From IMG/VR virus record IMGVR_UViG_3300036856_000037: 52,665 nt of DNA; one strand, written 5' to 3'. Positions 6,202-43,789 of this stretch are shown in pieces. A model generated the notes under the pieces. That model had not been told where the DNA came from and made no database searches. It worked only from the letters and a program-made list of their open reading frames with translations. The stretch's first letter is position 1; each line of letters starts with the position of its first letter. This stretch comes from a virus (taxonomy: Duplodnaviria > Heunggongvirae > Uroviricota > Caudoviricetes). The position numbers and the translations under genes were made by a program.

Positions 6202-6212
6202 TGGTGCCGTGA

Positions 6213-6279
6213 TGCCCGAGCGGGACTCAAACCCGCAACCGCCCGCGTCCAGGCCGCTCTATCAATTGGCGTACCGGGC
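6213..6279 (-). ncRNA. tRNA-like RNA with a 4-nt loop in place of the anticodon loop
   Basis: 6-bp acceptor, D-like arm, GCCTG-GACG-CGGGC, T arm GCGGG-TTTGAGT-CCCGC, A73. Confidence 0.6.
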
Positions 6280-6288
6280 ATCACTGCG

Positions 6289-6362: not shown

Positions 6363-6363
6363 A

Positions 6364-6426
6364 TGCCCAGCGCGGGACTTCAACCCGCCTCCCACTCCCA
6401 CATAAACGCAACGTCTAATAGTGGGC
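6364..6426 (-). pseudogene. tRNA remnant/minihelix (acceptor + T arm only)
   Basis: GCCCA.../TGGGC-A acceptor; GCGGG-TTGAAGT-CCCGC T arm; no D or anticodon arm. Confidence 0.45.
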
Positions 6427-6446
6427 GGCTCTACACCACCAGGGCG

Positions 6447-21450: not shown

Positions 21451-21591
21451 CGTCGGTCGATCAACGACATGCTCGTCGGCAAGGACTTTCTCGGTCGACC
21501 GACTTAAGCACGTCCTCCCAGAGCTGAGCAGAGTCAGACTGGCCCGAAAGGGGCGGCGGGGTTCCGCCCCACTACAACGAAAGGAACGACC

Positions 21592-21618
21592 ATGCGAAAG
21601 CAGATCACGCCCCGATAA
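21592..21618 (+). CDS. leader peptide MRKQITPR before tRNA-Lys(CTT)
   Basis: AAGGA SD; AAG at codon 3; 5' region homologous to the 43613 leader. Confidence 0.65.
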   Translation: MRKQITPR

Positions 21619-21621
21619 CAC

Positions 21622-21694
21622 GCGCCCGTAGCTGAGCCAGGTTTAGCTCCGTCCTCTTAAGTCGGAGACGCGGGTTCGAATCCCGCCGGGCGTA
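21622..21694 (+). tRNA. tRNA-Lys(CTT)
   Basis: CCGTC-CTCTTAA-GTCGG. Confidence 0.88.
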
Positions 21695-21869
21695 CGAGGG
21701 AAGTCAAGACGTATTTCGTCGTCAATACTCGCGATGACTTTCCGTAGGAAGTCAATAAATGCCACGCACCGCAATAGCGGGCTCGGCTTCCCGGTCAATG
21801 TAGTAAGCGAAGGCAAAGTTCACACCGGCCAAAAGATCATGTCGTAGCAAAAGACGTACCGGCCCGGTG

Positions 21870-22082
21870 TTACTTCCTCGGATGAAAGACCCATTCCCCG
21901 GGGTCATCGGGGTCTAGGACATCGACGGTGACGTGGTTGTCGGCGATGCCCTTGGTCCCGTAGTTGAAGGTCAGCCGGGTGCGGTCGTCTTCCAGGGGCT
22001 CAACTTCCCTGACGATGGCGTACCCGATACGCATACGGATTCTGTCCCCCGGCTTGAGCTCATCCGCGCGCTTGAGAGGCAT
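21870..22082 (-). CDS. small beta-rich hypothetical protein
   Basis: ADELKPGDRI... 70 aa ORF. Confidence 0.7.
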   Translation of the reverse strand: MPLKRADELKPGDRIRMRIGYAIVREVEPLEDDRTRLTFNYGTKGIADNHVTVDVLDPDDPGEWVFHPRK

Positions 22083-22147: not shown

Positions 22148-22390
22148 CTAGCACGGCGGCTTGGGTGGCGCATTGCGACACTCCTCGTCGTGTGCTGTGA
22201 CCACCCGCTGACACAAGTCCACCATCTTGGTGTTGCTGGTCTGACTGACCCGCACCATGATAGCGAATGCTTCATCAGAAGTGACCGAAAAGCGTTCCAT
22301 CAGAACGCCTTTCGCCGTCGCGATCACGTCGCGCGTTTCAAGCGCCCGCTGTAGCTGGGCGCAGCGTGCGCACTCAGCCACATACCCCAT
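22148..22390 (-). CDS. stand-alone ANTAR-domain RNA-binding protein
   Basis: LQRALETRDVIATAKGVLMERF..T.DEAF..MV..SQ.SN.K. Confidence 0.88.
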   Translation of the reverse strand: MGYVAECARCAQLQRALETRDVIATAKGVLMERFSVTSDEAFAIMVRVSQTSNTKMVDLCQRVVTAHDEECRNAPPKPPC

Positions 22391-24001: not shown

Positions 24002-24520
24002 ATGAGCGATGCGACCTTTGGCAGCACCTTCAACGGCGGCCAGGGCATTCACGAATTGACCGGTGAGCCCTATCTGGCGGTCACCATTCACTCCTCCATC
24101 ATCGGTTGGCGCCACCGCAAAGGCGTGATGCAGAAAATCCTGTGGAAAAAGCACGTTGACGCCCGCGGGCGCACGTCCTACCGCGCGCGCAAGTGGCCCA
24201 ACATGCCCTTCACCCTGCTGACCCGGGCGCGGTATGCCCTGCGTCCCCAGCTGTGTGCCGTGGGCTTTCACCACCGCGCCGACATCACCGAGGTGGACGG
24301 CAGTGTGTGGCGCGCGGGCTGCCTGTCGTGCGACACGCTGGTCAGGCCACATAAGAAGCTTCCGGCCAACCCCAGCAGGGTGGCAGAACTACAGGCGCTC
24401 AATGCCAAGGCGGACAAGATGAGCGCCGCCATCGACGCCTACCTGGCGGGGGAGGGTCCGTGTCCGCACTGCGCCTACCCCGATGGGAAACATGAGCCCG
24501 GCTGCTGGGAGGCGGAGTAG
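24002..24520 (+). CDS. hypothetical protein
   Basis: 172 aa ORF; CLSC, CPHC. Confidence 0.65.
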   Translation: MSDATFGSTFNGGQGIHELTGEPYLAVTIHSSIIGWRHRKGVMQKILWKKHVDARGRTSYRARKWPNMPFTLLTRARYALRPQLCAVGFHHRADITEVDGSVWRAGCLSCDTLVRPHKKLPANPSRVAELQALNAKADKMSAAIDAYLAGEGPCPHCAYPDGKHEPGCWEAE

Positions 24521-25031
24521 CCCGCGTCTGCGCAGCACGCGCGACATACGTCAGCAACGTCGCCCTCGGCGTCACAGTTGCTGGAATCACCTCATCGTTG
24601 CGCCGTTGTGGCCGAAGCACGGTGTCAACCTCGGCACCATGTTGCGGACGTGTGATGCCGCGGGCGCGTGCTTGGCCGTCCCGAAACTCCCCTGGGTCAA
24701 GGAAGCATTGGCCAAGGGAAATACATTGCGCACTCCGTCGTGTGTGCACTGGATCTATGCCGATGTAGGCGACTGGCTGAAGCGTCAGCGGGAGGGAGGC
24801 TCTCTGGTGGTGGGGGTGGAATTGACGGAGGAGTCAGTGCGACTGGCCGACCTGCCGATGGCACGTCAGCGGACAGTCATCGTGCTGGGGAATGAGCGCA
24901 CCGGCATCCCCCAAGAAGGCCTGGAGCACCTGGACGTAGCGGTGGAGATTCCGATGATTGGCAGCGGTGACAGCCTTAATGTCGTCATCGCCGGGTCTCT
25001 GGTCCTCTACAAGCTAGCGGGCCTGGTCTAG
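24483..25031 (+). CDS. SpoU/TrmH-family (SPOUT) RNA 2'-O-methyltransferase
   Basis: NLGTMLRTCDA, VLGNERTGI, VEIPMIGSGDSLNV motifs; start uncertain. Confidence 0.9.
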   Translation: MGNMSPAAGRRSSPRLRSTRDIRQQRRPRRHSCWNHLIVAPLWPKHGVNLGTMLRTCDAAGACLAVPKLPWVKEALAKGNTLRTPSCVHWIYADVGDWLKRQREGGSLVVGVELTEESVRLADLPMARQRTVIVLGNERTGIPQEGLEHLDVAVEIPMIGSGDSLNVVIAGSLVLYKLAGLV

Positions 25032-42839: not shown

Positions 42840-43538
42840 GTGGCTGGGGAAGATCATCAAGTTCGCCCGCGGTCGATAAAGTACCGTGAACGCGCTGTCG
42901 TCCTGCGTCACCAGCAGGCGCGGGAGCACGACTGGACCGTCACACTTCTGACGCGCGACCATCACGTCCTGACCGCACTGCTCAAGTACGCCCAGCGACC
43001 GTCGAACAGGTTGCGTCCCCGGCTTCGGGTCGGCGCGCATGTTGACGTGGAGTTGTACCGGGGGAATGTCATCACGCACGTCCAGCCGGTGGACGCGGTC
43101 CTCACTCACGCCTACGTCCCGGCCATGATGGAGGCGGCGGAGCTACTGGCTGAGGAAGGCCCGTGTGGTGACCTCTACTGGCTGACCGTCACGACACTGC
43201 GGGCCAAGGTGGCGCCGGGTCCGATGTTTGCCTCCTACCTCCTGCGCGCCATGGAGCTTTCCGGCTGGGGGCTGGCGCTGGCAGCGTGCGCGTGTTGTGG
43301 GGCACCGGGACCACACAAAGCGTTCCACGTCGCCGCCGGGGGGAGCGTGTGCCTGCGCTGTCGACCCCCGGGCGCCATCGTGGTGGAGTTGGAGTTGGTG
43401 GAGTTGCTGGCGGCATTGCGTGGGGAGAAGTGGGTGGTGGTGGAAGCCGCGCCGGCGAGCCTGGGCGCGCGCGCGACGGGGCTGATCGTGGCGCACTTTC
43501 AACAGCAGGTGGAGTGTCAGCTTGAGCGGTTGCCGTAA
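42840..43538 (+). CDS. recO: DNA repair protein RecO (actinobacterial type)
   Basis: YRERAVVLR, VTLLTRDH, YLLRAM..SGW..AL..CACCG.PGPHKAFHVAAGGSVC..CRP; start uncertain. Confidence 0.88.
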   Translation: MAGEDHQVRPRSIKYRERAVVLRHQQAREHDWTVTLLTRDHHVLTALLKYAQRPSNRLRPRLRVGAHVDVELYRGNVITHVQPVDAVLTHAYVPAMMEAAELLAEEGPCGDLYWLTVTTLRAKVAPGPMFASYLLRAMELSGWGLALAACACCGAPGPHKAFHVAAGGSVCLRCRPPGAIVVELELVELLAALRGEKWVVVEAAPASLGARATGLIVAHFQQQVECQLERLP

Positions 43539-43612
43539 CCTGCTACCGCACGCGGGTGGCGGCTGGTACTGTCATTGCCGTTACGTACCAGTCACTACGA
43601 GAGGAGCCGACC

Positions 43613-43675
43613 ATGCGACAGCATCGTAAACACGAGCCCGAACGCATGCAGAATAACGTCGGCGCTCGTAGCTGA
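43613..43675 (+). CDS. leader peptide MRQHRKHEPERMQNNVGARS of the Lys/Glu/Asn/Gln/Met tRNA cluster
   Basis: GAGGAG SD; AAA, GAG, GAA, AAT/AAC and CAG codons; pairs with the tRNA-Lys 5' strand. Confidence 0.7.
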   Translation: MRQHRKHEPERMQNNVGARS

Positions 43676-43733
43676 GTGGTTGTAGCTGGGGACTTTTAAT
43701 CCTTAGACGGGGGTTCGATTCCCTCCGGGCGCA
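43662..43733 (+). tRNA. tRNA-Lys(TTT)
   Basis: GGGGA-CTTTTAA-TCCTT. Confidence 0.9.
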
Positions 43734-43789
43734 CCGATTGGTGTCAATAACAGCATCGTTAGCAACGAGCGCTTCGGCACCAATCTCCC

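Follow-up and report, generated by a model that had tools for sequence, protein, structure and literature searches.

A shared upstream block before two tRNA-Lys genes of a tRNA-rich phage, possibly the relic of a duplicated spacer-plus-tRNA cassette

Two tRNA-Lys genes and their surroundings

The window analysed here, a stretch of 52,665 nt from a tailed virus (Caudoviricetes; IMG/VR record IMGVR_UViG_3300036856_000037), has a G+C content of about 61% and contains 37 tRNA genes grouped into several clusters, 33 of which also score above the Rfam tRNA threshold. Its proteins, among them a lysin A-type Rv2525c/LysM protein, DUF3631, DUF5131 and RecO, point to an actinobacterial, mycobacteriophage-like virus. 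Two of the tRNA genes are tRNA-Lys, with different anticodons, and each is preceded by a leader; the two loci have the following features:

21550-21570, plus strand: hairpin 1, a 7-bp G+C stem (21550-56 with 21564-70) with a 7-nt loop, ending directly before ACUAC
21561-21602, plus strand: first copy of the shared block, consisting of the hairpin 3' arm, ACUAC, the SD GAAAGGA (21579-85), a 6-nt spacer and ATG CGA AAG CA
21592-21618, plus strand: putative mini-ORF 1 (MRKQITPR, 8 codons), with a single Lys codon, AAG, at 21598-21600
21622-21695, plus strand: tRNA-Lys(CTT), closing gene of a Cys-to-Lys tRNA cluster (Rfam, 60.6 bits)
43542-43560 and 43561-43593, plus strand: two hairpins that follow the end of the RecO gene, with -11.9 and -13.5 kcal/mol respectively (z about -2 for both)
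43580-43623, plus strand: second copy of the shared block, consisting of the hairpin 3' arm, ACUAC, the SD AGGAG (43602-06), a 6-nt spacer and ATG CGA CAG CA
43613-43675, plus strand: putative mini-ORF 2 (20 codons), with a single Lys codon, AAA, at 43628-30
43662-43735, plus strand: tRNA-Lys(TTT), opening gene of a Lys-Glu-Glu-Asn-Gln-Met cluster (Rfam, 64.3 bits)

The leaders follow the same plan. In each, a hairpin ends directly before ACUAC, the 6-nt spacer between SD and ATG ends in CGACC, and the SD is accessible in the predicted folds. The stop codon of mini-ORF 1 (TAA) ends 3 nt before tRNA-Lys(CTT), and that of mini-ORF 2 (TGA) occupies tRNA positions 12-14, so that the ORF overlaps tRNA-Lys(TTT) by 14 nt. 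The hairpins are unlike each other in sequence and stem length as well as in their loops (7 nt in leader 1, 15 nt in leader 2). Hairpin 1 folds with -15 kcal/mol (z -2.15) on the plus strand and with -15.5 kcal/mol (z -2.66) on the minus strand; no T-run follows it and the terminator scan did not call it. On the minus strand it is followed by TTTCGGG, and it could also act on transcripts from the two convergent minus-strand genes located downstream of tRNA-Lys(CTT). At the second locus, the hairpin at 43542-60 starts directly past the RecO stop codon. The terminator scan found no terminator-like site between mini-ORF and tRNA at either locus, and a promoter in the block was rejected, neither copy containing a TANNNT -10 element. 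Searches with Rfam models, at the gathering threshold and at E values up to 10, gave no sign in the leaders of a decayed tRNA or of any known RNA family.

The start of tRNA-Lys(TTT) lies 123 nt past the stop codon of a RecO gene (42840-43538, plus strand; RecO_N plus RecO_C domains) directly 5' of leader 2, whose product is about 46% identical to Mycobacterium RecO. Since searches of 50,697 phage genomes and of IMG/VR gave no RecO homologue, this gene looks host-derived. Next to tRNA-Lys(CTT), a 70-aa protein (21870-22082, minus strand) has a counterpart of 70-81% identity, likewise small, that is conserved in Mycobacterium chromosomes next to a set of genes for periplasmic substrate binding and ABC transport. 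One 143.6-kb IMG/VR phage contig encodes the protein too, and the phage copies have a distinct C-terminus in common. As a route to phage relatives this protein was set aside, being host-derived, with one phage homologue (81%) that has no tRNA within 10 kb. An 80-aa ANTAR-domain protein (22148-22390, minus strand; PF03861, E 5e-21, full-length match) is encoded amid the tRNA arrays and, going by its domain, would give the phage an RNA-binding regulator of the antitermination type. In a crude scan, dual A..G.. hexaloop hairpins gave three matches in the window, one of them at 21451-21493 on the minus strand; on the plus strand, neither leader contains a pair of tandem hexaloop hairpins (A at 1, G at 4), and an ANTAR target in the leaders was therefore rejected. 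Between the Thr and the Gly-Asp-Ile-Arg tRNA clusters lies a gene for a SpoU-family RNA methylase (24483-25031, plus strand; PF00588, E 2.6e-21), which may be a phage tRNA 2'-O-methyltransferase.

The collections searched yielded no close relative of the window. When 5 kb around the first site were compared with 50,697 phage genomes by megablast, only the tRNA-Lys body of Rey and prophiT49-2 was matched, and blastn of each leader alone against INPHARED phages returned noise (E about 1). The tRNA-Lys(CTT) of these two cluster M phages is 87-89% identical to that of the window and follows the preceding tRNA at 37 nt (Rey) or 5 nt (prophiT49-2), with no SD-ATG leader upstream and no similarity to the block. 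A tRNA-Lys pattern search gave no matches in IMG/VR, 24 unrelated tRNAs with background leader scores (10-18) in JGI metagenomes and 5 unrelated matches in GTDB genomes. In all, no homologous leader was found in INPHARED phages, IMG/VR, JGI metagenomes or GTDB genomes. Relatives were also sought through RecO, the DUF3631 protein and the SpoU methylase (tblastn or pattern searches of phages and IMG/VR); these gave two IMG/VR relatives with 58-65% amino acid identity and no tRNA nearby, one of which, scanned whole, holds one tRNA-Arg. Homologues of a neighbouring 146-aa protein are located on contigs without tRNAs. The nearest phage relatives overall are IMG/VR contigs of 113.8 kb and 143.6 kb, both estimated to be 96% complete, with 58-81% amino acid identity in single proteins. 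They carry a single tRNA-Arg each (CCG and ACG) versus 37 tRNAs in the window, and so, judged by these contigs, the large tRNA array is recent and special to this phage. Apparent variants in 90% clusters proved to be only V/M start-letter differences, and the sole other contig with the window sequence, found in Logan, is 100% identical.

Similarity, folding and codon content of the leaders

Local alignment of the 100 nt upstream of each tRNA-Lys joined 21561-21602 with 43580-43623 at a score of 34, with 34 of 45 columns identical (76%), which defines a block of about 44 nt. The maximum score was 29 in 2000 shuffles and 22 in 4932 random 100-nt pieces of the window. When both strands of the whole window are scanned with either Lys leader, the best match apart from the query itself is the other leader, and the Lys spacers rank first among 465 pairs of tRNA upstream spacers. 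These results together support the homology of the leaders, which lie on the same strand and in the same order relative to the tRNA. Candidates for further copies of the block in the window (scores of 25-29) were noise on inspection. Downstream of the tRNA-Lys genes the flanks show no similarity, their score of 16 being equalled by 586 of 5000 random pieces. The resemblance of the two leaders is thus genuine and confined to the Lys genes. With a score of 30, the second-best pair of spacers consists of two uncalled tRNA-like elements in the 'spacers' of Leu tRNAs (6202-6287 and 6363-6445, both minus strand) that have a T-arm-like block in common. The first of them has a predicted cloverleaf fold (-43.5 kcal/mol, z -3.25), in which the acceptor stem is long and a T-arm is present, and weakly matches the tRNA-Sec model (E 0.24).

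Within the block, the stretch from SD through the spacer to ATG CGA is best kept and includes an 11-nt exact run. Between the block and the tRNA, short patches align only with indels totalling 19 nt. The identity of the block is about equal to that of the tRNA bodies (57 of 76 positions, 75%). A reading made from the sequence alone had already described a homologous leader made of hairpin, SD and MR before both genes. The letters and positions it gave for both leaders are correct, and the homology stands as regards block similarity, SD, ATG CGA and hairpin placement, but the hairpins themselves are alike only in part of their 3' arms.

The same reading proposed that GGGGCG at 21550 acts as a switch by pairing with alternative C-rich partners in the leader or the tRNA. 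Such partners exist (21564-70, 21608-13 and 21623-27). In pairing ensembles of the upstream 75 nt plus the tRNA, in which we counted the first 20 tRNA nt paired with the leader, at least 8 nt of leader-tRNA pairing were predicted for about one third of the tRNAs in the window. For Lys(TTT), 15.7 nt are predicted to pair, the third highest value among the 37 tRNAs, and for Lys(CTT) 0.0 nt, the lowest, so that pairing of GGGGCG with tRNA CGCCC has negligible predicted weight. A switch common to both leaders finds no support either, given the opposite pairing values and the folding of the leaders, which is no better than that of shuffled sequences (z +0.41 for leader 1 and -1.33 for leader 2, each against its own shuffles). 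The two have no consensus fold, alifold giving -5.2 kcal/mol.

It was further claimed that the Lys codon of each leader tracks the anticodon of the tRNA behind it. It is literally true that AAG occurs only in leader 1 and AAA only in leader 2, but each is a single codon (one of 7 sense codons in mini-ORF 1, one of 19 in mini-ORF 2), and their positions are not homologous: codon 3 of leader 1 (AAG) stands opposite CAG of leader 2, and AAA, codon 6 of leader 2, falls in a part without counterpart in leader 1. Both mini-ORF peptides begin with MR and differ after codon 2. The distance from ATG to tRNA is 30 nt in leader 1 and 49 nt in leader 2, and because of this difference of 19 nt the reading frame is not preserved. 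By the wobble rules, tRNA-Lys(UUU) can read AAG too, so leader 1 would not be isoacceptor-specific.

Across the window, an exact cognate codon occurs in the mini-ORF upstream of 7 of the 37 tRNAs, versus 7.0 +/- 2.0 when tRNA identities are permuted (P = 0.59); if an SD is required, the count is 3, with 2.6 expected. Cognate codons in mini-ORFs upstream of tRNAs are thus what chance produces. With two cases that are probably paralogous, unaligned codons, a frame that is not kept and no excess across the window, the proposed tracking finds no support in these tests. The additional remark that ACG in mini-ORF 1 is read by the next tRNA, Thr(CGT), carries no weight, since the 36 distinct anticodons of the window provide an exact cognate for 36 of the 61 sense codons (59%); that tRNA lies 1.3 kb from leader 1, beyond four protein genes. 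Short ORFs with an SD are not rare in the window either. Of 47 SD-ATG sites, 28 open ORFs of at least 45 codons and 16 open ORFs of at most 25 codons, and shuffles yield about 22 SD-ATG sites of any length; sites with short ORFs are therefore about as common as expected by chance.

For the Lys pair taken by itself, the nominal odds are only moderate. Given the codons of the two mini-ORFs and permuted tRNA identities, hand calculation gives 4/37 x 12/37 = 0.035 for a cognate tRNA behind both. For the matching codon only in both leaders the value is about 0.007-0.009, calculated from the frequencies of codons or 3-mers (Lys makes up 2.5% of codons, with an AAA share of 23%). Both calculations are post hoc, since 37 tRNAs and numerous frames had been viewed beforehand, and they treat as independent two leaders that are not. 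Most likely, the single Lys codon in each mini-ORF is incidental.

A proposed duplicated cassette and competing explanations

We infer that the two tRNA-Lys genes are paralogues derived from a duplicated spacer-plus-tRNA cassette, and that the shared block is a relic of the copied spacer with no sensing function; we give this reading a probability of roughly 55%. An ancestral unit of spacer and tRNA-Lys would have been copied, probably in tandem within one ancestral array, and one copy would have become the other isoacceptor. Insertion or rearrangement would later have placed about 22 kb of DNA between the copies, the block of about 44 nt being what can still be recognized of the copied spacer. 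Ribosomes may load at its SD-ATG, as on many short mycobacterial ORFs, while the frames past the ATG would have drifted in length, frame and peptide. The leading hairpins would be ordinary unit boundaries, at the second site the end of the RecO message and at the first a spacer structure that folds on both strands.

Several observations favour this history. The upstream flanks are significantly similar, reciprocally best and about as identical as the tRNAs themselves. Paralogy of the pair is suggested by the acceptor stem (GCGCyCG/CGGGCGy), the unusual GCTGAG D-arm and the T-arm, which the two genes have in common and which set them apart from their cluster M orthologues. In its anticodon arm, however, Lys(CTT) is closer to Rey and prophiT49-2 than to Lys(TTT), a comparison of five sequences from which no tree would be meaningful. 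In the window, tRNAs for the same amino acid are mostly adjacent, as expected if arrays grow by local duplication. A relic is also favoured by the indels between block and tRNA, which break the frame if the faint patches there are homologous, by peptides that diverge from codon 3, by the run of mini-ORF 2 into the tRNA, by the leaderless orthologues in Rey and prophiT49-2, and by the lack of a common structure together with cognate-codon matches and short SD-ATG ORFs at chance frequency. The codon match in tiny ORFs beside tRNAs would then be a chance product in a genome with 36 anticodons.

Other observations count against a pure relic. The odds of a chance SD-ATG inside the 45-nt block, kept in both copies, are about 1 in 1000 by a rough hand estimate. 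The initiation region thus probably is or was functional, whether as part of a short translated ORF, as the relic of a gene start or as a functional leader. Selection is hinted at by a non-coding spacer kept as well as the adjacent, constrained tRNA. Each leader also has the matching Lys codon and lacks the other one, at the nominal and permuted odds given above. Against the relic reading also stand the mini-ORFs, both of which end at the tRNA 5' end, and a toxin of the likely host group that is aimed at exactly the two tRNA-Lys species (PMC7033543).

Among the alternatives, the one that survives best, although we consider it unlikely, is that the initiation region is functional independently of the codons, with ribosome loading or translation stabilizing the tRNA-Lys precursor or timing its processing, or with the peptides having a role of their own. 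It would account for the conservation of SD, spacer and ATG CGA and for the predicted accessibility of the SD, and it fits the pervasive translation of short ORFs in mycobacteria (PMC9094748). Against it, the peptides share only two residues, and RNase P cleavage would strip mini-ORF 2 of its stop codon. Moreover, a 45-nt alignment of 76% identity may well contain an exact run of 11 nt (P about 0.4, hand estimate).

A leader that senses Lys through translation, so that a ribosome on the mini-ORF controls tRNA-Lys maturation, seems improbable to us. With Lys-tRNA plentiful, the ribosome would reach the stop codon at or in the 5' end of the tRNA, where it would interfere with folding or with processing by RNase P; with Lys-tRNA short, for instance after attack by a host nuclease, it would stall at AAG or AAA, and the tRNA could fold and mature, which would close a demand-driven feedback loop. 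This is the arrangement one might draw from a strong SD at ideal spacing before an ATG, the best-conserved part of both leaders, followed by one Lys codon that matches the anticodon and by a stop 3 nt before or 14 nt inside the tRNA, where, given the usual footprint, a terminating ribosome would cover the acceptor 5' strand. Leader 2 is, in addition, predicted to pair with tRNA nt 1-20. However, neither leader has a run of Lys codons, the single codons sit at non-homologous positions, AAG is read by tRNA-Lys(UUU) also, and neither frame nor ORF length is conserved. No alternative structure is common to the leaders, no terminator-like site separates ORF and tRNA, codon-anticodon enrichment is absent across the window, the orthologous tRNAs elsewhere have no such leader, and the sample consists of two related copies in one genome.

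Such sensing is made somewhat more plausible by the MazF toxin of M. smegmatis (MazF-ms), which cleaves exactly the two tRNA-Lys species (PMC7033543); the same applies to MazF-mt9 of M. tuberculosis (PMC6620280), and phage tRNAs are thought to replace tRNAs cut by host nucleases (PMC10264068). MazF targeting and stop placement would make a coherent model, whose chances we consider small. If true, it would give the first example of a tRNA gene under attenuation-like feedback, which would also serve as a counter-defence sensor. Phages would then tune their tRNA supply to the host tRNA pool, which would link tRNA arrays to defence by anticodon nucleases, an open question in the field (PMC10264068).

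Equally doubtful is a recognition or processing signal, made of hairpin, ACUAC and block, through which an RNase or an RNA-binding protein such as the ANTAR protein would act on both tRNA-Lys precursors. A stable hairpin does end right before the conserved ACUAC in both copies, and the stand-alone ANTAR gene lies 450 nt from tRNA-Lys(CTT). A common recognition element is nonetheless hard to reconcile with hairpins that have so little in common and match no Rfam family, with the absence of ANTAR-type hexaloops and with the presence of only two copies in 52 kb. Finally, chance resemblance of two unrelated SD-ATG sites in G+C-rich spacers, for which the commonness of short SD-ATG ORFs in the window might speak, is effectively excluded by an alignment score reached in 0 of 2000 shuffles and 0 of 4932 random pieces, by the reciprocal best match, by the top rank among 465 pairs and by the position of the block precisely before the two Lys tRNAs.

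Comparison with known systems

The leaders resemble the leader-peptide attenuators of enterobacteria (trpL, hisL, pheL, thrL and leuL; for pheL, PMC3082878) in having a short SD-led ORF directly upstream that contains a codon related to the product. They differ in having one such codon instead of a run and no terminator/antiterminator pair; the target would be a tRNA and not a biosynthetic operon, and the structure is not conserved between the copies. The hallmarks of attenuators (codon run, terminator and antiterminator hairpins, common fold) are thus absent in both Lys leaders. Closer to the likely host group are the mycobacterial polycysteine short ORFs, cysteine-responsive attenuators in which an upstream ORF is likewise a proposed sensor of decoding capacity (bioRxiv 10.1101/834739). 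Those ORFs are leaderless, have several consecutive Cys codons and precede protein-coding operons, whereas the Lys ORFs are SD-led, have a single Lys codon and stand before a tRNA.

With T-box riboswitches, the leaders would share the specification of an isoacceptor by a single codon. They have no T-box fold or Rfam match, however, and are far too short; T-boxes, moreover, work without translation, and the genes they regulate are aminoacyl-tRNA synthetase and amino-acid genes rather than tRNA genes.

The PeSL elements of T4-type phages are mobile regulatory cassettes in which a stem-loop plus an expression signal is repeated between genes. The Lys leaders are similar to them in that a plastic part of the genome has, repeated at its unit boundaries, a stem-loop with a conserved expression signal behind it. 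In contrast to PeSL cassettes, the Lys block occurs in two copies only and lacks a promoter-like -10 element, and its conserved part is a ribosome-binding site instead of a promoter.

The growth of phage tRNA arrays by duplication of a gene and its flank offers another parallel. The copies in the window now lie 22 kb apart in different clusters, and their flank keeps a complete SD-ATG region, both of which set them apart from this process. What they have in common with it are the oddities shared by the two tRNAs, the similar upstream flank and the clustering of tRNAs for the same amino acid, and, if the duplicated-cassette reading is right, the pair would document ordinary array growth, in which a gene was copied together with its spacer.
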